DNA from: Anaerorhabdus sp.
GTDB lineage: Bacteria; Bacillota_I; Bacilli_A; Erysipelotrichales; Erysipelotrichaceae
NCBI RefSeq assembly: GCF_036641015.1
Contig: NZ_JAVWFO010000001.1
Location: forward strand, 16,596 to 80,595
Direction: 5' to 3'
Length of the DNA stretch: 64,000 nt
Positions 9,312 through 22,118 of the stretch are shown in pieces (position 1 is the first letter of the stretch; the number at the start of each line of letters is the position of its first letter). The notes below the pieces were generated by a model. That model did no database searches. It was not told where the DNA came from and saw only the letters and a list, made by a program, of their open reading frames with translations. Both the position numbers and the translations under genes were made by a program.

Positions 9312-9914
9312 TTAAATGTCAATATTTGATTCATTATTAAGCATATTATCTATAGAATCCCAAAGAGAATCTACACCTTCTTTTGTAATACTACTGAAAT
9401 CAATAATATTACTTAAAGGAACATTTAAAGTCTCACTTATACATTTTTTTAACTTTGCTAACTCACTTCTTTTGCATTTATCTTTTTTAGTCGCACATAC
9501 AAGAATATTCATGTGCAATTCTCTTGCATAATCAATCATTGTAACATCATCATTCGTTGGTTTATGTCGATAATCTACAATAAGTATTAATGCTTTTAAG
9601 TTTTTACGATTACTAAAATATCCATCCATCATTTCACCAAACTGAACTAATTCCTTTTGGCTTCGATGTGCAAATCCATATCCTGGTACATCAACTAACA
9701 TATATTTATTATCTACTTTAAAGAAATTAAGAAATCTTGTTTTCCCTGGAGTATTACCAACATATGCTGCATTTTTACGATTTACTAATGCATTTATTAA
9801 TGAAGATTTCCCGACATTACTGCGACCAGCTAATACAAATTCAGGTAAATCACTTATTGGACAATCCTCAATTTTTGGTGAACTAGTTAGAAACTCTACC
9901 TCATGGTATTTCAT
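9312..9914 (-). CDS. engB: Ribosome biogenesis GTPase YsxC/EngB
   Basis: GRSNVGKSS, PGKT, DVPGYG, TKKD. Confidence 0.96.
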   Translation of the reverse strand: MKYHEVEFLTSSPKIEDCPISDLPEFVLAGRSNVGKSSLINALVNRKNAAYVGNTPGKTRFLNFFKVDNKYMLVDVPGYGFAHRSQKELVQFGEMMDGYFSNRKNLKALILIVDYRHKPTNDDVTMIDYARELHMNILVCATKKDKCKRSELAKLKKCISETLNVPLSNIIDFSSITKEGVDSLWDSIDNMLNNESNIDI

Positions 9915-12229
9915 TGTACAAGAGCTTCCTTTAATACTTGTTCCATAGATTCAACCGGGATAAATTGAACGTTCTCTTTAACAGTATCAGGTATTTCATC
10001 TAAATCTTTTAAATTACTCTTTGGAATAATTATATGTTTGATTCCCACACGATGAGCAGCAAGACTTTTCTCTCTTAATCCACCTATCGGTAGAACATTA
10101 CCTCTTAGTGTGACCTCACCAGTCATGGCTAAATCTGATCGCACTGCTATACCTGTAATAGCTGAAACTAATGCGGTAGTTAAGGTAATTCCTGCACTCG
10201 GACCATCCTTTGGTACTGCCCCTTCAGGTACATGGATATGAATATCATGTGAATCAAAAAACTTAGGATCAATTTTATATTTCTTAGCATTTGATTTAAT
10301 ATAATCTAATGCAATCGATGTAGATTCTTTCATAACATCGCCTAATTGACCGGTCACGATAAATCTCCCTTTTCCATCAAAGTAAGTAACTTCAACAGGT
10401 AATACGTCACCACCGAATTGTGTATATGCTAAACCAGTTACAACGCCCACTTGATTCTTCTTTTCTTTTTGACCATATTCAAACATTTCTTTTCCAAGCC
10501 ATTCAAGAATTAGTTTTTTTGTAACTTTAATTGATTTTTTCTTCTCTTTTAACACTAAAAGAACTGACTTACGACACAAAGATGCAATAACACGTTCTAA
10601 TTGACGTACCCCTGCTTCTCTTGTGTAGTGTCTAATAATGAATAGTAATTCATTCTCTTCAAGTTTAAATTGATTTTGTTTTAAACCATTCATAATTATT
10701 TGCTTAGGAACTAGATGATTCAAAGCAATTTTAACTTTTTCAACTTCTGTGTAACTAGATAATTGAATGATTTCTAAACGGTCACGTAACGCTGCAGGAA
10801 TATCTTCTAAATAATTGGCAGTCGCAATGAACATAACATTACTTAAATCATATGGTTCTTCTAAATAATGATCCGAAAAGAAAGCATTTTGTTCTGGATC
10901 TAATACTTCTAACATCGCACTACTTGGATCACCTTTGTAATCAGAACCTAACTTATCTATTTCATCAATTAGGAATACAGGATTAATAACACCTGCTTTT
11001 TTCATACCTTGAATAATTCTTCCAGGCATACTTCCTAAATAAGTACGACGATGTCCTCTAATTTCAGATTCATCCTTAACACCACCAACTGACATCTTCA
11101 CAAATCTACGATCAAGCGATTTTGCAATAGATTTACCAAGAGATGTTTTTCCTACTCCAGGAGGACCTACTAAACATAATATAGGTGAATTTAAACTCTT
11201 AGTCATTTGTTTAACTGCTAAATATTCCATAATTCTGTCTTTAACTTTACCAAGACCATAATGATATTGATTAAGTCTATCTTGAACTGAATTCAAATTT
11301 TCGTTGTCTTCTGTCATTCCATACCAAGGTGTTTTCAATAACCAATCAAGATATGTCCTTACAACGGAAGCTTCCCCAGAAGATGCAGGCAACATTTCAT
11401 ATCGTTGCAATTCTTCAAGTGCTTTTTGTTTAACATGTTCAGGATACGGATTTTTTTCAATCATTTCACGTAATTCTGCAGTATCATCAGTAAAATTAGA
11501 TACATCACCTAATTCTTCTTTAATAGCACGCATTTTTTCACGCAAATAATATTCACGTTGTCCCTCTTCGATACGCTCTCTTACTTTTTCATTAATGCTT
11601 GTTTCAACTTTAGATAACTCTTTTTCTTTTTCAAGTTCGCTAATAATTAACATCAAACGTTCATTCACATTTAATGTTTCTAATAATTGTTGTTTTTTAT
11701 CTAATGACAAAGGAAAATATTGTGCAAATTGATCTGCCAAAATTACAGCACTAACTCCTTTAGTTAATTGTGCAATAACTTCTGGTGGAAAATTAGTAGT
11801 TGTATTCGCAACATTTTCAAATTCCATTGCAACTCTTTTTACTAAAGCAAGTTCTTCTATTTCATCTCCTGCTATATTAGATAATGGTTGAATTGTAGCC
11901 ATTGTTAATTTCTCACCATCGATATAATCAACAAGTTCAGCTCTTTCTAAACCAGTAAATGTTACACGCATAAAACCATCTTTTTTACGAATTGTTTTTA
12001 TGTGACATAAAGTACCAAATTTATAAATATTATCAAGTGTTGGACTATCAATCATAATGTCATTTTGACATACAACCCAAACATGTCCTTCATAATGATT
12101 TTGTGATTCTTCTACTGCATTAACACTTTTTTCTCTTCCAACCTCAATTACTACATCTTGGTTAGGAAATATTACAATTCCTCTAGTACAAACTACTGGA
12201 ATCGTAACTTGTAAGCTCTTATTCTTCAT
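9911..12229 (-). CDS. lon: Endopeptidase La
   Basis: [29 protein letters not shown] catalytic Ser. Confidence 0.98.
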
Positions 12230-12252
12230 ATTTTAACCTCCATCATAAGACA

Positions 12253-12277
12253 AAATAAGACGCAATGCGTCTTATTT
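12253..12277 (-). terminator. Hairpin/terminator after tig
   Basis: AAATAAGACGC-AAT-GCGTCTTATTT perfect inverted repeat. Confidence 0.7.
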
Positions 12278-13543
12278 AGTAGCTGTATCTTTGATTAGAT
12301 CGTAAGCTTTACGAATACGAATATCTTCTGCCAAGCTAGATGAAGGAATCAATTCTTTAACTTTTGATACTTCCATCTTATATTGCTCAGCAATTCCGTT
12401 GAATTCAGTTTCAACTTCATCGTCATTAACTTCGATCTTTTCAGCTTTAGCAATAGCTTCAAGAACTAAACGCAATTTAACTTTGTTTTCAGCATCTTTC
12501 CCCATTTGCTCACGAATTTGTTCCATTGTTTGACCAGTCATTTGCATGAATTGATCAAGTCCGAAACCTTGTTGTTGTAAACGATTTGCAAAGTCATTTA
12601 CTAGTTGATTAGTTTCATCTTCAATCATTTCTTGTGGAATGTCAACAGTAGCACCATCTACTACTTTAGTGATCAAATCATTCATAGCATTATTTTCTGC
12701 TTGAGTTTTTTTGTTTTCCCCTAAATCTTTCTTAATTAGATTTTTTAAATCTTCAAGAGTTTCTACATTAGGTGCATTTACATCTTTAGCAAATTCATCA
12801 TTAAGTTCAGGTAATTGCTTACTCTTAACTTCATGTACTTTTACTTTGAATGTAACAGGTGCTCCTTTTAGTTCTTCTGCTTGGTAATTTTCAGGGAATG
12901 TAACATTAACATCTTTATCATCGCCAGCAACAGCACCAATTAGTTGTTCTTCAAATCCTGGAATAAAGCTTCCTGAACCAATTACTAAGTGATGTCCTTC
13001 AGCTTTACCGCCTTCAAATGCTACACCATCTTTAAATCCTTCAAAATCAATTACAGCAGTATCGCCATTTTCAACAGCGCCTTCTTTTGTAATCATATCA
13101 GCATAGTTTTCTTGTAAACGAGTTAATTCATTATTAACCTCTTCATCACTAACCTCTGATACTTCTTCACTATATGGTAATTCTTTGTATTGACCTAAAG
13201 TTACTTCAGGTTTAACCACAATAATGAAGCGGATGTCAGCTTTTTCTTCATTCATGTCATCAATTGCTAATTCAGGTCTTGCTACAGGCCATAAATCAAA
13301 CTCCTTAATTCCATCTTGTAATAATTGATTAGCAATACTTTCAATTGCTTCAACCATTACATTATTTGAAGAAATGTTTTTCTCAATCATATTTTTTGGA
13401 GCATGCCCTTTTCTAAAACCAGGGATTTCCACATTTTGCGCTAATTTATCGAAAGCTTTCTTTTGAGCATCTTTCCATTCTTGCCCTTCAATTGTTACTT
13501 TTAATTCACCTTTAGATTTTTCAATAATATTCCAAGTTGACAT
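12272..13543 (-). CDS. tig: Trigger factor
   Basis: IPGFRKGH signature, FKBP domain IDFEG..FIPGFEEQL. Confidence 0.98.
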   Translation of the reverse strand: MSTWNIIEKSKGELKVTIEGQEWKDAQKKAFDKLAQNVEIPGFRKGHAPKNMIEKNISSNNVMVEAIESIANQLLQDGIKEFDLWPVARPELAIDDMNEEKADIRFIIVVKPEVTLGQYKELPYSEEVSEVSDEEVNNELTRLQENYADMITKEGAVENGDTAVIDFEGFKDGVAFEGGKAEGHHLVIGSGSFIPGFEEQLIGAVAGDDKDVNVTFPENYQAEELKGAPVTFKVKVHEVKSKQLPELNDEFAKDVNAPNVETLEDLKNLIKKDLGENKKTQAENNAMNDLITKVVDGATVDIPQEMIEDETNQLVNDFANRLQQQGFGLDQFMQMTGQTMEQIREQMGKDAENKVKLRLVLEAIAKAEKIEVNDDEVETEFNGIAEQYKMEVSKVKELIPSSSLAEDIRIRKAYDLIKDTATK

Positions 13544-13650: not shown

Positions 13651-14364
13651 TTATGAAAGTAAGTGATTTTTAGGTGTTTCTTGCCTAAATTTAAGCTTTT
13701 TTTCAAGATTATCCCACTCATTACTGCGATTAGTAAGATTCAACACAAACTTCGTTATCATTAACGCTAATTCATAACCTTCTTCTAATTCATAGCTTAA
13801 AGGTAAGTAATCAAAGCATTCATGAATAAGTTGCTGTAAACAAAACTCATAAAACGAAGGATCTTCATTAGAAAACCACTCTTCTAAATAAGATTGTGCT
13901 TCATTAAATCCATCAGATTCAAAAGGTCTTAAACAACATACTGGTGTAAACTCATAATCAATTTCATCTTTTTGATAAATTAAAGTCTCATCAATTTTCT
14001 GTTCAATGCATGAGTCAATTAGTAATGCTGCCGCAGAAGGATTAGGTTTACTTGCTAAGTATTTACTAATAAGTTCCAAATAGTTTCTCAAATTCAATGT
14101 ATTTAACTTATTAACCGCAACCAGTTGTAATTCATCATCAGCAAACAGGTATTTCTCTATATCTTGTTCACTTAATTCGCGAATTACTTGATTACCACTT
14201 TCTGATTTAATGTCTTTATTTAACTCTTCTAATTTTTTTTCGAACTCCACAGGCACATAAGGCATTTTCAACTCCGACAATATAAGTGATTTTGCTTCAT
14301 CATATTCCTTATTTTTAATATGGTTTTCGATTGTTTCTAGTATTTCATCATAGTAACTTTTCAT
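13651..14364 (-). CDS. Conserved hypothetical protein, probably DUF3196 family
   Basis: Start revised to ATG 14364 (GAGGAAG SD); YYDEIL..I..EL.MPYVP..E motif and position upstream of tig recalled from Mollicutes/Erysipelotrichia; family name not verified. Confidence 0.65.
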   Translation of the reverse strand: MKSYYDEILETIENHIKNKEYDEAKSLILSELKMPYVPVEFEKKLEELNKDIKSESGNQVIRELSEQDIEKYLFADDELQLVAVNKLNTLNLRNYLELISKYLASKPNPSAAALLIDSCIEQKIDETLIYQKDEIDYEFTPVCCLRPFESDGFNEAQSYLEEWFSNEDPSFYEFCLQQLIHECFDYLPLSYELEEGYELALMITKFVLNLTNRSNEWDNLEKKLKFRQETPKNHLLS

Positions 14365-14410
14365 ACTCTTCCTCAAAAATGAACCTTCAAACAAGTTGAA
14401 GGTTCTTCTA

Positions 14411-17400
14411 TTAATTATCAAACATTTTTTGTCTTAGATAATCTAATTTCTTTGCAAATAAATTCTTATTTTTAATTTCTAATTCTTTGTCAAGACGACG
14501 CTTTTCGCTCATTTCATTTTCAAATTCAATAAGACGATGTTGTTCACTAGCTATTTCTTGCTCAATATCATTCAGTAATTTTTGATGTTTTCGTACCATT
14601 TCATCATAAATTTCTGATTGATTCGCTATTTTACCAGCTTTTTCTTTACGCAATTTAGATTCTTCTGCTTCCAGTTCACTTAATCTATTCTTTCGAGCAA
14701 TTATTTTATCTTCATATCCCTCAAGTACATCTGCATAAGATACAGAACTAGAGTTTGATTTATAAATTTCATCTAATGACTCATATTTCTTCTTAAGTGC
14801 ATTGAAACGTCTTAATACCTTGTTGTTATCATCTTGTAATGAGTAAATTTCCTCTAAGAAACTATTCTTAGTTGCAGCAATACGATCAGTAAATTCATCC
14901 TTAGCATGTTTTTCATTTTCCATAAGTTCATCTCGAATATTACTTACGTTTTCAAATTCAGCTGCATCATAGTTTTCTTCGTTATTTTGTCGTTTACGTA
15001 ATGCATCCTTATATTCTTGAATATATGCTTCATTCTTAACAATTTGTTCGTTCAACAACTTCTCGTAACGTTCTTCTTTTTCACGTATTTGTTTGTCCAA
15101 CTCATCAAGTGACAATTCAAACTCTTCGCCAGCTGCTTCTTTTTCTTTTTCTATACGTTGAAGTTCTTTTTCAAGAATCTTGTTATTTTTACGATTTTCT
15201 TCTTCAATTGATGCTTTCTTCTTTTCTGAAAGCTTTTCAAAAATCTTTTGTTGCTTATCAATTACATCATTAATTTTAGCTTTTTCTTCTTCTAATAATT
15301 CCAATTTAGACTGACGAATTGCTTGAAGTTTTTCCTCTTCTTGATTTCTTGTTTGAACAAATCTTTCAACTTCTAAATCAATACTTTGTTTGTAAGAATC
15401 AATTTTAGCTTGTCTATCTTTAATAAGGTTTTCAATGTTAACAAGATTTTGTTCACATTCTTCCTCATATTTGCGTAATCTTTGTTCATCTTGAAACTTA
15501 CGTTGTTCAAGTTTTTCTTCTAAATCATGAATACTTTGACTAACTTGTTCTTCTTGTTTCTTTAAAGACTCATTTTCATTAATTAGTCGATTAATTTCAG
15601 GATTATATTGATTTCTAATTGCTTTTTCTTCTTCTTGCATTTTTTCAGCAGATAATTTGATACGTTGACGAATAGCACTTAAAGATTCATCCCAGAATTT
15701 TTTGAAGTTTTCTTTTTCAATATCTCTTTCTTCAATACGTTTAGCTTCTTCATTGTTCAAACGATTCACAAGAGCTTCAAAGCGAGTTTTTTCAGCCTCA
15801 AGTTTTTCTTCTTCTTGACGAACATATTCATTAATATCTGCTTGTTTATCAGCAAGTTGCTTTGCAAGTTGCGCTTTATAATCCTCATAGTTTTTAATAA
15901 AGCCATTTAGAATTTCATCATTTTGAAGTGCAATAACTTCTTGTTTTTCATCTTGTTCACGAATAAATTCTTGAATAAGTTGTTCATGTTGCGTATTTAC
16001 TTGTTCGATTGCTTTTTGATAATTTTCATTACGCATTGCAATAATATGAGTAATTTCTTTATCAACATCTTCCTGAGCATTTTTGATTTCTTGAATTTTT
16101 TGCTCATTTATTTGTTTAGTTTGATCTAATTCATTTTGTAATTCTTCAATATTTGCATTAAGTCTATCAACCATTGATTGATAATTAGAAATCTCTCTTT
16201 CACGGTCTTCCATATGAATCTTATTATTGCGCTCATAGTCCGCGATAAACTTTTCAATCATTTCTTTTTTTGTTTCTTGTTGTCTAATTTTAGCATCAAC
16301 CGCATTTTTAAGTTGAATTTTTTCAATTTCAACTTGATTTAATTGTGCACTCAACTCATCTTTTAATTCATTGAAATTTTTAATATTAGACTCTCTAGCA
16401 ACTTCTGCTTCATATTCAAGTTGAGCTTTATGATGTTCAAAGTCCTCTTGAAGAAGTGCCATTTCATTTTTATGGCTTTCTTCTGTTTTTTCCATTTCTT
16501 GAGTAACAAGTTTAACTTGTTCTTGAATTTTACTAAGAGCTTGTTCATTTTCTCTTACTTTATTTGCATATGTAGCTTCTAATACAGATTGTTCTTGAAG
16601 AATTCTATTCTTCTCGTCTTCCATATTACGTTGAATGTCGATTAATTCTGAATTCATTTTATTAGATATTGTCTTACGTGCTAGTTCATATTCAGAGCGT
16701 AAATAATCAATTCGTTCATCTTTTTGCACTTCCAATTGAGCAATAGAGCGTTCAACTTCTTGTGCTTGTTCATTTAACTCAGTAGCTAATTCATTTCTTA
16801 ACTTGATAAGTTTTTGATTCTCATCTTGTTCATCTGATTTATAATGACTAATTATGTCACGTAAATTTGCATCAATATTACGAATTTCAATTCGTTTATT
16901 ATCAATTGCATGCTCAAAATCATTAATTTGTTGCAAATGCTCTTCAAGTGCAACGCTGTTCTTTTTAATTAAATCATTTTTATTAGCTTCGTATTCCTCT
17001 TGAAGTACAGCCATATTTGTAATTAATGTCTTTTCCTCATCAGTTAAGCGACTAATCTCACTATTTATTTCACTAATTCTTTCTTCAGCATTTTTTCTAT
17101 GTTCATCAATACTCTTAACGATTTTCTCTACTGTTGTTTGAGCATTTTCCTTAATTTTGTTTAATTTCTTATCATTGTTATGCTTAAATGATTCTAATTC
17201 ATTAGCATTTTTCTCTTTTAAGCTATCAAAGTTTTTGCCTGTTTCAGCTAAAATACGATTCTCTTGTTCGATTTGTTTTTCAAACTCTGGAATAATAGTA
17301 TTTATCTTGTTTTGCGTATCATGAATTTCATTTGATATTTGTTCAATGAAAACATCACTATTTCTTTGTAATTCAGCAACACGTTCCTTATGCTCTTTTT

Positions 17401-19321
17401 GAATTTCTTTAATGTTTTCTTCATACTTAGCTTGCATTTCATCTTTTTTAGCAAGAACTTTTTGTTCGAATTCTTCCATTTTCTTTTGGAATTTATCTTT
17501 TGATTCATCAATTTTAGCTGTATGAGCACTAATTAATTCTTCTCTTCTTGCTTCAAAAGCTAATACACAAGCTTCATGTTTACTTCTTTCTTCTTCACGA
17601 AGTGCTTCTAAAGGAATCATTTTTTCATTTAATAATTCTATTTCTTTTTTTAATCCTTCAATAATTTCATTCTTATTATCGATTTCAGTACTGTGTTCTT
17701 CCTTAATAAGCTTAATTTGATTTTCAAGACGATTAACTTCTTCATCATTATTTTGTTGTATTAAGTTAACTTCAACTTGTTTATTTTCTAAATTTTTAAT
17801 ATAACCTTCAACTTGTTCATCAATTTCAACACGTTTTTGTGCAAAAACAGCTTCTTGTTCTTTAAGTTGTTCTTGAATTAATAGTACATCGCTTTCGAAT
17901 TGTGCACTTAGTTTGATTAAATAATTATTATGTTCAATTTCTGCATTTTTAATATCTGTTTGGCACTTTAATATACGATCTTTGATTTCATTTAGACGTT
18001 GATAGTGTGTGCTTTCAAGTGTTAATTCCTTAGCTTCTAGTTCTTTCTTTCCTAATTGTAACTTTTCTTCATCACGACGTAGATCTTCCTTTAAGAAACT
18101 AATATTACCATTAAGTTTTTCTTCCTCACTCGCAAGCAATCCACGATAAAATTCATAGATTGAATCAGCTTCTTCCTTAAGTTTAGTATCCAATCCATTA
18201 GTTTTTAATACAATGTCTTGTTGGAATTGCTCAAATTCACGGCCTAGTTTTTCAATTAATTGTTGTGTTTGTTCTTGTTCAGTTGCTCTTAAATTAGTGA
18301 AGTTTTCTACTTCCTTCTTATAAGTATCACTTAAAATACGAAATTGATTTTGCTTTCCAGCAAGTTCATTTTGCGCATGGTTATGGGAATTTTCTAATTC
18401 TTTAATGCGAGCAAGTTGATTATCTTCCAAATTACGTCTAATCACTTCATATTTTTCAATTTTTTGTTTTAGTAAGTCTTTTAAACTTTTTTCATGTTTA
18501 TCAAGTAAATCAAGTTCTGCTTTTTTACCATCGATAAAAGCTTGGTTACTAAGTGCAAAATCATCAAAACTTGCTGCCCATTGATTTATTTTAGTAGCAA
18601 GTTCTTGCTTCTTATGTTCAAGTTGCGCTAAGTTATTCTCTTTTGTATTCTCAATTTCTTGTTTATAACCTTCATATGTAATTTCTTCATTTTTAAGTGC
18701 TTCGCTAAGACTGTTTTCTAATTCAATAACCTTCTTATCAAAGTTTTTCTTTAATTTCTCAATGTGTGTTTCAAGTTTCTTAATTTCTTTTTTCTTCTTT
18801 TCACATTCAATAGCCGATGCAGATTTTAGACTTTCTTTGATTTCTTCAGTTTCTTGTATTAAACGATTACGTTCTTTTAAGAATAATTTGTCTTGGGATT
18901 GTTTGATTGACTGAATTTCATCGTATATTTCTTTTTCTTTTTTAGCAAGTTGTTCTTTTAATATTTTATTCTTTTTGTCAGCATCACTTAAAATAACAGC
19001 TTTTTTCTTATTTACTTCTTTAGCTGCTTTTTCAGATTTAGTTGCTAAGACATTAATTTTTTCTTGGATTTCTCCTGATTCAGCATCAATGTCATCCATT
19101 GCCTTTTCAATATCACGTTTAGCTTGATTAACTTGTTTTTTACGCGCATTATATTCGATATTTTGAACCTTCTGAACACCATTTAAAAAATCTCCTGAAT
19201 GTTCTAACTCGTGTTCCAATTTTTCAATATTCTTCTCTTTTTCTTCTATTTCGATTTGAATATCGCTTGGTTTTACCTCTTCTTGCTTTTTGAATGAGTT
19301 AAAAAAACTGAATTTTGCCAT
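14411..19321 (-). CDS. Giant coiled-coil protein (1636 aa), function unknown
   Basis: Uninterrupted ORF, E/K/Q/L/I-rich, very few Pro/Gly, no TM segment, no Walker motifs. Confidence 0.85.
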   Translation of the reverse strand: MAKFSFFNSFKKQEEVKPSDIQIEIEEKEKNIEKLEHELEHSGDFLNGVQKVQNIEYNARKKQVNQAKRDIEKAMDDIDAESGEIQEKINVLATKSEKAAKEVNKKKAVILSDADKKNKILKEQLAKKEKEIYDEIQSIKQSQDKLFLKERNRLIQETEEIKESLKSASAIECEKKKKEIKKLETHIEKLKKNFDKKVIELENSLSEALKNEEITYEGYKQEIENTKENNLAQLEHKKQELATKINQWAASFDDFALSNQAFIDGKKAELDLLDKHEKSLKDLLKQKIEKYEVIRRNLEDNQLARIKELENSHNHAQNELAGKQNQFRILSDTYKKEVENFTNLRATEQEQTQQLIEKLGREFEQFQQDIVLKTNGLDTKLKEEADSIYEFYRGLLASEEEKLNGNISFLKEDLRRDEEKLQLGKKELEAKELTLESTHYQRLNEIKDRILKCQTDIKNAEIEHNNYLIKLSAQFESDVLLIQEQLKEQEAVFAQKRVEIDEQVEGYIKNLENKQVEVNLIQQNNDEEVNRLENQIKLIKEEHSTEIDNKNEIIEGLKKEIELLNEKMIPLEALREEERSKHEACVLAFEARREELISAHTAKIDESKDKFQKKMEEFEQKVLAKKDEMQAKYEENIKEIQKEHKERVAELQRNSDVFIEQISNEIHDTQNKINTIIPEFEKQIEQENRILAETGKNFDSLKEKNANELESFKHNNDKKLNKIKENAQTTVEKIVKSIDEHRKNAEERISEINSEISRLTDEEKTLITNMAVLQEEYEANKNDLIKKNSVALEEHLQQINDFEHAIDNKRIEIRNIDANLRDIISHYKSDEQDENQKLIKLRNELATELNEQAQEVERSIAQLEVQKDERIDYLRSEYELARKTISNKMNSELIDIQRNMEDEKNRILQEQSVLEATYANKVRENEQALSKIQEQVKLVTQEMEKTEESHKNEMALLQEDFEHHKAQLEYEAEVARESNIKNFNELKDELSAQLNQVEIEKIQLKNAVDAKIRQQETKKEMIEKFIADYERNNKIHMEDREREISNYQSMVDRLNANIEELQNELDQTKQINEQKIQEIKNAQEDVDKEITHIIAMRNENYQKAIEQVNTQHEQLIQEFIREQDEKQEVIALQNDEILNGFIKNYEDYKAQLAKQLADKQADINEYVRQEEEKLEAEKTRFEALVNRLNNEEAKRIEERDIEKENFKKFWDESLSAIRQRIKLSAEKMQEEEKAIRNQYNPEINRLINENESLKKQEEQVSQSIHDLEEKLEQRKFQDEQRLRKYEEECEQNLVNIENLIKDRQAKIDSYKQSIDLEVERFVQTRNQEEEKLQAIRQSKLELLEEEKAKINDVIDKQQKIFEKLSEKKKASIEEENRKNNKILEKELQRIEKEKEAAGEEFELSLDELDKQIREKEERYEKLLNEQIVKNEAYIQEYKDALRKRQNNEENYDAAEFENVSNIRDELMENEKHAKDEFTDRIAATKNSFLEEIYSLQDDNNKVLRRFNALKKKYESLDEIYKSNSSSVSYADVLEGYEDKIIARKNRLSELEAEESKLRKEKAGKIANQSEIYDEMVRKHQKLLNDIEQEIASEQHRLIEFENEMSEKRRLDKELEIKNKNLFAKKLDYLRQKMFDN

Positions 19322-19618
19322 AGTAGCACCCCTTAATCATGTTTAAAAATGCACATTTGTATATCATAAATATTAACTCAAAAATGCTATTTTAACAACA
19401 TAAACTAGGTAAAACGAAGTAAAATAAAACAACTTCGTTTATAAATCAGCCAAGATAACATTACTTTAATACAATTAATAAATATTCATGCTGTATCCAA
19501 GTCATAGCCATAATACTTAAACAATAGTAGTTATGTAGGATATATTGAGTTAGATTATTTACTCTATTTTAAACATTAACTTGTTTTGCAACAGTTTTGA
19601 AAGCAATGCAATGAATGT

Positions 19619-20896
19619 CTATCTATAGACTGACCGATATAAATTTTCACGTAATTTTTTATAGATAATTATAGTTAAAATGGTTATTGCAGGCACCAAA
19701 ATGATATAGATATTTGAAAAGTAGCTAACTAAATTATTATAAAATACAACCATTACAATACAAATCAGAAAAATGAATATACCATCAAAAAACATATCAT
19801 TATTAATAAACCCTTTTGTTACGAAATAGAATATCAAAAGTATAGTCATAGCATAAATTAATGCATCTCCAATTGATACTAAGTTGAAATTTATTAATTG
19901 AATATTAAATAACAATTTTAAACTAATGAGTGTTACTCCAACTGTAATTAATATAATAATTATGTTCTTAACAAAACTATATACAATTGCATCAAACATT
20001 CTTTCTCTAGATATTGGCACAAGTTTTAAATATGTCGCCCTATTAAAATGATACTCATATGTTGCATATAACGAAATCGAAAATAATAGAATAAATAGAA
20101 CATAAACCGTTGTTAATGACATCATTGAAAATTTACCATAATTAGAGAATGTTATGAAAATTTGATATAACCAAAACGAAAATCCAGTTATCGCAACTTT
20201 TTGATTATCAAGGTTATATTTAGAAAACCGACTTAATTGACTAATTTTATTTTCCATTTTTTTATTGCTTAATTCAAGATTTTTACTATTTGAATACGTT
20301 TGCACAAAAAGTTTAAATAACGCTACCATAAATGGAAATATAAATGAAACTAATATCATTAAGAAAAATTTATCAAAAACTAATATTTGCGTTTTAAAAT
20401 AATATACAACCAATAATAGAAAGTTTAAATACATTAACGATAATATATATCCAAATCGACAATTATTTAAAAAACAATTATTTTTAAACATCATATTTTC
20501 AAGCACGAAATATATCCAATAAAAGCTGATAACTATCGCCAAAAACAGTATTACAGCATTTACACTATATGGATATACTTTAGTCAAACTACATAAACCA
20601 ATAATACATACTCCTACAATTGTTAATGCAAATGAACTTATAAAATAAAGAGAAAATTGTTTGTTTTTATCTATTGGCAATATTTGTAAATATTTACTTC
20701 CGTTTGTATCTAAAAAATCAAAGTTAGATCCATAATCAAATCGGGTTGATTCACCCACAGTAAATAAACAAATTCCAAGCGCACCAACAGCCAAAAGTAA
20801 ACTAGGATCACACAATCCAATAAAACCAATTGTAAATATTGCAACTGCCCAACGCCACATACATTTATTTTTCCAATATGTAAAGTAAGGTTTCAT
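19619..20896 (-). CDS. Multi-pass membrane protein, ABC-2-type permease
   Basis: ~11-12 hydrophobic segments; follows ABC ATPase. Confidence 0.7.
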   Translation of the reverse strand: MKPYFTYWKNKCMWRWAVAIFTIGFIGLCDPSLLLAVGALGICLFTVGESTRFDYGSNFDFLDTNGSKYLQILPIDKNKQFSLYFISSFALTIVGVCIIGLCSLTKVYPYSVNAVILFLAIVISFYWIYFVLENMMFKNNCFLNNCRFGYILSLMYLNFLLLVVYYFKTQILVFDKFFLMILVSFIFPFMVALFKLFVQTYSNSKNLELSNKKMENKISQLSRFSKYNLDNQKVAITGFSFWLYQIFITFSNYGKFSMMSLTTVYVLFILLFSISLYATYEYHFNRATYLKLVPISRERMFDAIVYSFVKNIIIILITVGVTLISLKLLFNIQLINFNLVSIGDALIYAMTILLIFYFVTKGFINNDMFFDGIFIFLICIVMVVFYNNLVSYFSNIYIILVPAITILTIIIYKKLRENLYRSVYR

Positions 20897-20897
20897 A

Positions 20898-21743
20898 TCA
20901 TAACCCCCAATAAATCATAATATCTTCTATTGATGCTTTTTTAAATTGATATTTTGGATTATTTATAAATTTAGAGCTTTGCGTGCACAATGCTTTAAAA
21001 CCATCTTTAGTTTCTTCAATACTTCTACAAACTTTTTTTAAATCATCTGGTATGGTGCCTTCACCAAATACAATTTGGTTTTCTTCTTGGATATGATCCT
21101 TATTCATTGAAAATACAATTTCGCCATCATCAATTAATGTAACTTCATCTGCAATTTTATCTAAATCAGATGTAATGTGTGTTGAAAATAAAACGGTTTT
21201 ACTTTCATCTTGCATAATATCATAAATTAAATCTAAAACTTGATGCCTTGAAATTGGATCAAGATTTGATGTTGGTTCATCAAGAATAATGAAATCCGGA
21301 TGATGTGCTAAACTAAACGCAATTGATATTTTCATTTTCATTCCTAATGATAAACTTTTGAATTTAGTGTCTAAGGATACATCCAACTTTTTGCACAAAT
21401 TTTTAAAATATAATATATCAAAATTACTATAAAACGGACCTAGTTCTGATGCTAAACGTTCTCCAGTCATTGATAAAGGATAATAAAATTGATCGTTAAC
21501 ATACGCAATTCTGTCCTTTATTTCAAGTCCATTATCCTCGAAATTCATACCTAATATTTTTATATCTCCTCTATTGCGTCTAATTAATTCTAAAAAGCCA
21601 TTAATCATCGTTGTTTTACCAGAGCCATTTCGCCCAATCAATCCTGTAACATAACCCTTTTTAACACAGTAATTAGGAATATATAGTTTAAAATTATTAT
21701 AGCTAACAGCTAAATCATTTAATTCTAATGCATACTCAGTCAT
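20898..21743 (-). CDS. ABC transporter ATP-binding protein (YtrB-like)
   Basis: GRNGSGKTT, LSLGM, ILDEPT. Confidence 0.93.
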   Translation of the reverse strand: MTEYALELNDLAVSYNNFKLYIPNYCVKKGYVTGLIGRNGSGKTTMINGFLELIRRNRGDIKILGMNFEDNGLEIKDRIAYVNDQFYYPLSMTGERLASELGPFYSNFDILYFKNLCKKLDVSLDTKFKSLSLGMKMKISIAFSLAHHPDFIILDEPTSNLDPISRHQVLDLIYDIMQDESKTVLFSTHITSDLDKIADEVTLIDDGEIVFSMNKDHIQEENQIVFGEGTIPDDLKKVCRSIEETKDGFKALCTQSSKFINNPKYQFKKASIEDIMIYWGL

Positions 21744-21746
21744 AGT

Positions 21747-22118
21747 TTAGTCCTCCAATATACTATTAATAATATTCTTCAACTCATCATTACTTAATCC
21801 ATATTTTTTTGCTTCTTCAATAATATTTTTTAGTTTTTCACTTGTCTCTTGTTCTTTTAAATCCTTAAGTTTATTGAGGGATACTTTTTTGACAAAGCAT
21901 CCTTTACCTTGTCTTGTTTCAACGTAACCTTCTCTCTCCAAGTCATCATAAGCTCGTTTGATTGTGATGATAGCGATATTCAATTCTTTCGCCAAACTTC
22001 TAATTGATGGAAGTTGATCATTCTCCTTCAATACACCACTAAAAATCTTTTCTTTGATTTGCATAATCAATTGAAGATAGTTAGGTATATTAGATTTTTC
22101 ATCAATTTTAAGTATCAT
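21747..22118 (-). CDS. GntR family regulator, YtrA subfamily
   Basis: LPSIRSLAKEL..TIKRAYDDLEREG..GKGCFV, 123 aa. Confidence 0.93.
   Translation of the reverse strand: MILKIDEKSNIPNYLQLIMQIKEKIFSGVLKENDQLPSIRSLAKELNIAIITIKRAYDDLEREGYVETRQGKGCFVKKVSLNKLKDLKEQETSEKLKNIIEEAKKYGLSNDELKNIINSILED

Follow-up and report, generated by a model that had tools for sequence, protein, structure and literature searches.

The 64,000-nucleotide stretch of Anaerorhabdus sp. DNA analysed here (contig NZ_JAVWFO010000001.1, positions 16,596 to 80,595 of the forward strand; referred to below as the window) encodes a giant rod-like protein of 1636 amino acids (aa), designated P0001, which combines a single sharp hydrophobic period of 3.603 residues with a length that is kept within four residues among relatives of only 17-25% identity. 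The explanation favoured here, to which we assign a probability of about 0.5, is that P0001 forms a self-associating, nearly unsupercoiled cytoplasmic rod of fixed length, acting as a structural scaffold or spacer, and more tentatively in shape or envelope organisation, in lineages devoid of an elongasome. The original prediction, made from the DNA alone, had proposed a structural rod in a walled relative of the Mollicutes, and the host, an Anaerorhabdus within the Erysipelotrichaceae, fits that description. Few long coiled-coil scaffolds are known from bacteria, most of them being heptad-based or hendecad-rich. The giant rod is also a candidate for a scaffold or shape-determining element of Bacillota that have lost MreB and MreC.

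The open reading frame (ORF) encoding P0001 spans positions 14411-19321 of the window on the minus strand (1636 codons plus TAA) and is uninterrupted. A Shine-Dalgarno sequence, AAGGGG (19329-19334), is located 7 nt ahead of the ATG, with only 5 codons between the in-frame stop and this start codon, and an AT-rich spacer of ~300 nt separates the gene from its upstream neighbour. Comparison with two orthologs yielded dN/dS values of 0.12 and 0.22, indicative of purifying selection on a coding gene, and the ORF is thus confirmed as a real, conserved gene. The deduced protein is rich in Glu (17.5%) and Lys (12.7%), has a net charge of -89 and contains 4 Pro and 18 Gly residues, the latter being sparse beyond residue 700. 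As the highest 19-residue Kyte-Doolittle mean of P0001 is 0.54, the protein is considered to be without a transmembrane segment or signal peptide.

No family match for P0001 was obtained in Pfam, NCBIfam, PHROGs or PADLOC. The sole Pfam score was a sub-threshold one for apolipoprotein (PF01442; 22 bits, compared with a cut-off of 90), and a search of PDB sequences with the P0001 profile retrieved apolipoproteins only (A-I and A-IV; best E 2.8e-5). Heads of the SMC/SbcC/Rad50 type were looked for and found neither by Pfam and NCBIfam matching nor as a Walker A motif (G....GK[ST]) or a hinge, and none of the PHROGs families matched, tape-measure homology being absent. The giant, strongly charged, helical coiled-coil protein of the original prediction, lacking an ATPase head, hinge, transmembrane segment and signal peptide, is therefore upheld, and the SMC/SbcC fragment or tape-measure match that had been named as its counter-evidence was sought and not found. 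A literature search returned no paper on the 1636-aa family or on the cell biology of Anaerorhabdus furcosa.

Periodicity was assessed by Fourier analysis of a hydrophobic indicator (ILMFVWY), expressed as normalised power. P0001 was shown to exhibit one sharp peak at 3.603 residues with a power of 74 (maximum of 100 shuffles, 11.3), compared with a power of ~5 at the canonical heptad value of 3.5 and a global power of 1.1 at the hendecad value of 11/3 (3.67), neither pattern being present by itself. When the 767 ORFs of the same genome that encode 300 aa or more were compared, P0001 was the extreme outlier; the next protein was SMC, with a power of 16.9 at 3.484, the value expected of heptads. 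The eight homologs examined, down to 17% identity, all displayed a period of 3.603-3.604 with a power of 49-78. When the spacing of the hydrophobic residues was parsed, heptads and hendecads were found to be interleaved without a strict 18-mer, and the rhythm of the seam is thus neither heptad nor hendecad but 18/5 (i.e. 7+11). The proposed choice between a 7- and an 11-residue periodicity consequently has a third outcome, in which both spacings occur in mixture.

The hydrophobic seam is ~120 degrees wide and consists for 45-60% of large hydrophobic residues (Ile/Leu/Phe/Tyr), with Ala accounting for 3%. Conservation is 0.40 at the seam and declines evenly to either side, reaching 0.16 on the face opposite, and no conserved charge periodicity of the myosin or intermediate filament (IF) type was detected. 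Residues 20-1520 (14762-19264) are predicted to form a continuous helix, along which the phase of the seam drifts by less than ~60 degrees over ~1450 residues. It then jumps near residue 1525, coinciding with a predicted Ser-rich helix break (residues 1521-1528; 14738-14761), after which a terminal helix (residues 1529-1618; 14468-14737) follows with a period of ~3.58.

Side peaks in the Fourier spectrum at 3.55 and 3.655 point to a modulation of ~245 residues, and autocorrelation of the family profile produced peaks at lags of 245, 486 and 980. When 245-column segments were compared using hhalign, residues 247-483 (17873-18583) paired with residues 733-969 (16415-17125) at a lag of 486 (97.5%, E 8e-12), and residues 493-700 (17222-17845) paired with residues 983-1190 (15752-16375) at a lag of 490 (96%, E 4.4e-9), while neighbouring segments matched each other weakly. 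These matches indicate that the rod comprises ~3.3 copies of a ~490-residue unit, which itself represents an older duplication of ~245 residues. The statement that the protein has no exact repeats is correct as such, but overlooks this cryptic repeat. Given that an undistorted alpha-helix contains ~3.63 residues per turn (PMC9858780), a seam of 3.603 residues would wind the rod very slightly to the left, a full supercoil turn being completed every ~488 residues. The predicted pitch (~488 residues, ~72 nm) would then equal the ~490-residue sequence repeat. A 3.603 seam that stays in phase for ~1500 residues, in combination with a pitch-sized repeat, represents a natural test case of how periodicity sets the geometry of a rod.

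The protein had been regarded as an orphan, a view that no longer holds, since relatives were identified in Anaerorhabdus, in a second genus (g23) and in one metagenome-assembled genome (MAG), as well as in a wider superfamily. A word-based search retrieved three relatives of 1636-1641 aa, one of which is a hypothetical protein of A. furcosa, and when the C-terminal 1200 residues were used to query 1.84 billion representatives exhaustively with HMMER, only six proteins were returned at E <=1e-30. Across 201 genomes of the Erysipelotrichaceae, a gene of the 1636-aa family was present only in genera g1 (Anaerorhabdus) and g23, which are sister genera (support 100/99) in a single-gene trigger-factor tree whose backbone is unresolved. 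The locus is conserved across these two genera. The MAG-derived protein, P0011, is 17% identical to P0001, is exactly 1636 aa long and is encoded in another gene context; a search of 399 genomes of the class did not recover its lineage. No relatives of the giant rod were found in viral contigs.

The type strain A. furcosa ATCC 25662 encodes three paralogs, each of 1635-1636 aa and with a period of 3.603, at loci L051 (syntenic), L050:5944-10911 and L070:2525-7480 (NZ_FUWY01000006/7). One of these follows a gene for a XerD-like recombinase, and the third is located between LDH and a MATE gene and measures 1635 aa counted from MGKFNLF. As this strain is cultured, the questions raised here are amenable to testing at the bench.

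Counted from the conserved start, six members of the family are 1636 aa long (P0001, P0002 from its conserved MAKF start, P0003, P0004, P0005 and P0011), three are 1635 aa (P0006, P0008 and the third A. furcosa paralog) and one is 1632 aa (P0007). Eight family sequences with 22-73% identity could be aligned in 1644 columns, interrupted internally only by a single-residue indel and by a +3/-3 pair that cancels out. Similarly, when four sequences were aligned, the gaps in the member with 32% identity (-4, +6 and -2) added up to no net change. Nor did the family alignment contain indels of 7, 11 or 18 residues, which would preserve the phase, and this is indicative of a constraint on length or long-range register rather than on local phase alone.

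The HMMER search also returned weaker matches (E between 1e-15 and 1e-4), which proved to be further long proteins whose periods, of 3.60-3.66, are likewise coherent. Among these, a group designated 'MGLFD' (P0012, 2758 aa; P0024; P0036; P0044, 1309 aa) comprises proteins of 1289-2758 aa with a period of 3.603-3.607, an N-terminal MGLFD, MALFD or MFDF, and no Pfam domain. Alignment of the 1636-aa family with this group by hhalign was collinear from Met1 over 1018 columns (99.5%, E 3.9e-22), a score that may be inflated by composition and periodicity. Both groups share an N-terminal M-x-x-F-[DN] peptide and a period of 3.60-3.61 that stays in phase for >1000 residues, and the whole-length profiles of the two subfamilies did not detect each other at E 1e-5 to 1e-10. 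The 'MGLFD' group is likewise confined to the Erysipelotrichaceae in the genomes searched, being found in 0 of 361 genomes from 29 other families of the class.

With a joint profile, giants were identified in six of the 83 genera of the Erysipelotrichaceae (g1, g23, g5, g16, g47 and g51). The g51 giant (L071:2686-8565, genome G168) is a 1959-codon open frame with a period of 3.606 and the N-terminus MFKFSTKNK. It represents a further length class of the superfamily, and its genus is one of those lacking MreC. P0044 is encoded between aspS and UPF0154 (L040). P0001 resembles P0044 and its 'MGLFD' relatives in its bacterial family, in its ~245-residue units and in its hosts without MreB/MreC, and differs from them in length (1636 compared with ~1300 aa), in its tail (NLFxKKLxYLKxK compared with ...LSALDT...IF), in gene position and in genera. 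Judged by sequence, P0001 is thus a member of a small unnamed family, seen in only a handful of gut Erysipelotrichaceae, and of a wider superfamily of rods with a 3.60 period in the Erysipelotrichaceae.

A separate class of giants was also observed (P0141, P0034, P0013, P0142, P0035 and others). Its members are 900-2800 aa long and have an N-terminal transmembrane segment, a coherent period of 3.63-3.64 and the conserved C-terminal motif QGW..EIA....LS.GEVELILE. One of them, P0141, passes the Pfam Apolipoprotein threshold with 109 bits.

Both ends of P0001 are conserved and are aromatic-basic in an otherwise very acidic protein. The N-terminal peptide MAKFSFFNSFKK (residues 1-12, 19286-19321; consensus M-x-[KR]-F-N-F-F) and the C-terminal tail KNLFAKKLDYLRQKMFDN (residues 1619-1636, 14414-14467), which is conserved in the 1636-aa subfamily, each carry a charge of +3. 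As a lead only, MAKFSFFNSFKK resembles the membrane-targeting peptide of Escherichia coli MinE, MALLDFFLSRKK. A linker (residues 13-19, 19265-19285) contains Pro18 (in KPSDIQ) just ahead of the first helix; this residue is invariant in seven homologs and is the only Pro so conserved. Towards the other end, a box comprising residues ~1340-1440 (15002-15304; KQQKIF.KL..KK ... NKILEKEL ... G-E-x-F-E-L) was shown to be the most conserved part of the protein, with a mean pairwise identity of 0.49 compared with ~0.26 elsewhere. It surrounds a predicted helix break at Gly1398 and is a candidate partner-binding or assembly site.

Protein structure predictions using AlphaFold2 (AF2; residues 437-1636 and 1-840) returned ~98% helix, with the chain being helical from residue 20, residues 1-19 non-helical and residues 1-12 modelled at low confidence. 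When reflected at the molecular centre (c = 1637), the local-periodicity profile did not match itself (r = -0.1), and hence offers no support for a centre-symmetric antiparallel dimer or a hairpin.

The shape machinery of the hosts was compared across the bacterial family. MreC was found in 58 of the 83 genera and in none of the six giant-carrying genera. In g1, g23, g5 and g16, the MreB model matched only DnaK-sized ORFs of ~600 aa at 60-70 bits. At the level of individual Erysipelotrichaceae genomes (94-100% complete), MreB was not found in G135, G068, G101, G152, G004, G087, G015 and G096, nor was MreC in G135, G068, G101, G152, G004, G015 and both sampled g16 genomes. G000 is 84% complete, and the gene absences are based on these more complete relatives (94-100%). 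Genera g1 and g23 possess a single SEDS gene together with DivIVA- and GpsB-like genes; G135, G068, G101 and G152 each encode one SEDS protein (FtsW/RodA) and retain DivIVA- and GpsB-like genes.

According to the explanation favoured here, P0001 chains would pair through the narrow 3.603 seam to yield a coiled coil that is all but straight, with a very slight left-handed twist. Equivalent residues of successive ~490-residue units would face the same way, an arrangement suited to lateral assembly in register or to contact with a surface along the rod, and the end peptides and the box near residue 1400 would be candidate attachment points. The rod would then act as a structural scaffold or spacer for which length is important and, more tentatively, may contribute to envelope or shape organisation in Erysipelotrichaceae without the MreB/MreC elongasome. 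The rod would measure the previously estimated ~240 nm only if it is not folded back.

Several observations weigh against this explanation. The agreement between pitch and repeat hinges on the value of 3.63 residues per turn, as 3.62 would give a pitch of 776 residues and 3.64 one of 356 residues. The AF2 monomer models have predicted local distance difference test (pLDDT) values of 61-65, and their helix breaks disagree between the two overlapping models. The end peptides, which the original prediction had described as amphipathic, are aromatic and basic, yet with a helical hydrophobic moment of 0.23-0.25 they fall short of the average for the body (0.33), so that they are not unusually amphipathic. 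Any membrane tethering would depend on these short peptides of unexceptional moment and is unsupported at present, and the net charge of the protein disfavours direct membrane binding by the rod body. No operon partner is conserved across the superfamily in the contexts examined. The association between giants and loss of MreC is suggestive, but is uncorrected for phylogeny and confounded by it, as g1 and g23 are sisters and the tree backbone is unresolved; moreover, in 19 further genera without MreC no giant was found.

A stronger version of the same explanation, in which P0001 is a true molecular ruler whose 1636-residue length and pitch-commensurate ~490-residue repeat set a cellular dimension or lattice spacing in bacteria that lost the MreBCD elongasome, is regarded as doubtful. 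If it were true, candidates for what is set would be the width of the cell, the distance between septa or a 36/72-nm lattice associated with the envelope, and the other fixed lengths of the superfamily (~1300, 1959 and 2758 aa) would set other ones. Length conservation could alternatively reflect the matching of arms in a rod that folds back on itself or forms a helical bundle (resembling SMC arms, spectrin or long hairpins), giving a particle far shorter than 240 nm. Evolution free of indels, even of those of 7, 11 or 18 residues, is expected of antiparallel pairing, and the N-terminal AF2 model shows low-confidence dips every ~200 residues. However, the inconsistent break points between the overlapping models, the lack of mirror symmetry in the periodicity and the lack of a conserved central loop or hinge (Pro18 being the sole invariant Pro, and Gly being sparse past residue 700) argue against such folding, which we consider improbable. 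It also seems rather unlikely that P0001 is a tether for polarity, division or segregation which, like Scy, FilP or other polar scaffolds, recruits division, growth or ParA-type partners through its ends and the ~1400 box without setting any dimension. The retention of DivIVA- and GpsB-like genes in carriers without MreB and MreC is consistent with such a role, as is the activity of Scy and FilP, which are non-heptad rods, in conjunction with DivIVA (PMC9858780). Conversely, neither the GY[DN]xx[QE]V[DN] motif nor a Pfam DivIVA match was found, and none of the contexts examined has a division or partition gene next to the giant gene.

The remaining rivals are weaker still. A single amphipathic helix lying on a surface, in the manner of apolipoproteins, perilipins or LEA proteins, would account for a period near that of an undistorted helix, 3.60 then being the natural helix repeat, and for the fact that the only database similarities are the weak ones to apolipoproteins A-I and A-IV. 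This is nevertheless judged very unlikely, since the Pfam score falls far below the cut-off, the net charge is at odds with anionic bacterial lipids, the 45-60% hydrophobic seam is narrow, and the helix-punctuating prolines typical of apolipoproteins are absent from the rod. That the gene encodes a phage tape-measure protein, is cargo of a mobile element or is a spurious ORF is scarcely credible. The exact conservation of length does recall tape-measure rulers, some weak profile matches look like tape-measure N-termini, and one A. furcosa paralog follows a XerD-like recombinase gene. Against this, there is neither a PHROGs or PADLOC match nor a relative in viral contigs, the neighbours are housekeeping genes at a locus kept across two genera, and the dN/dS is 0.12. 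A self-associating rod of fixed length remains the preferred explanation.

On the same strand, the giant gene is followed by DUF3196 (13651-14363), tig (12272-13543), lon (9911-12229) and engB (9312-9914), the last three covering 9312-13543; all four serve as context only. The previously reported co-directional position upstream of a hypothetical-tig-lon-engB block is accurate, the hypothetical gene being DUF3196. A 10-bp hairpin followed by ATTTTT (14381-14405), which is terminator- or attenuator-like, begins 5 nt past the stop codon of the giant gene, and is succeeded by a GAGGA site and an ATG opening MKSYYDE (DUF3196). This ATG, at 14363, agrees with the starts of DUF3196 homologs elsewhere and is likely the true start; the 11-nt overlap of the giant gene with a TTG-started DUF3196 (14421) thus arises artificially from calling the longest ORF. 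In 71 of the 83 genera of the family DUF3196 and tig are paired, with unrelated genes upstream, and the giant gene is thus an addition beside this conserved pair and not a part of it. A functional link between the giant gene and DUF3196-tig was considered and rejected, based on this wide distribution of the pair, the intervening hairpin and the location of the paralogs and P0011 elsewhere. The link to the DUF3196-tig-lon-engB block as a whole is probably positional.

The genes upstream of the giant gene encode a 425-aa protein that belongs to no family, an ABC ATPase, a GntR regulator and LDH. The conserved trio at 19619-22118, consisting of the GntR regulator, the ABC ATPase and the 425-aa membrane protein without a Pfam family, resembles a transporter operon of the YtrA type, which genus g1 retains and g23 does not.

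Compared with known systems, the giant rod shares the very long helical arms of conserved length of SMC/SbcC/Rad50, and is distinguished from them by the absence of heads, Walker A and hinge; the host SMC, moreover, has a period of 3.484 (power 17). It shares periodic amphipathic helices with apolipoproteins A-I, A-IV and E (PF01442), the only family with any score, although at 22 rather than 90 bits this similarity is solely compositional and periodic. HMW2 of Mycoplasma pneumoniae and crescentin/IF-like proteins are likewise giant or long cytoplasmic coiled-coil structural proteins, of Mollicutes or other bacteria; they are heptad-based with proline or linker breaks, and no sequence match to them was obtained in any search. 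The comparison with scaffolds of the Scy and HMW2 type that had been drawn earlier proved apt, as these are the nearest functional analogues. The DivIVA-like domain is defined by an N-terminal GY[DN]xx[QE]V[DN] motif followed by a short heptad dimer, and Scy and FilP of Streptomyces, which belong to the DivIVA-like superfamily, carry an N-terminal GYDxxEVD, contain extended hendecad stretches with Ala-rich cores and range in length from <200 to >1000 residues (PMC9858780; Walshaw et al. 2010 as cited there). This motif, whether strict or relaxed, was found in 0 of 13 family and superfamily members, and no PF05103 match was obtained. The giant rod further differs from Scy and FilP in its period of 3.603, its seam with 3% Ala and its fixed length, and has no detectable homology to them. 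Nonetheless, all have long, non-heptad and nearly unsupercoiled repeats, and Scy and FilP have scaffold roles in bacteria whose vegetative growth does not rely on MreB, so that, by analogy, these two proteins appear to be the nearest known counterparts of the giant rod.

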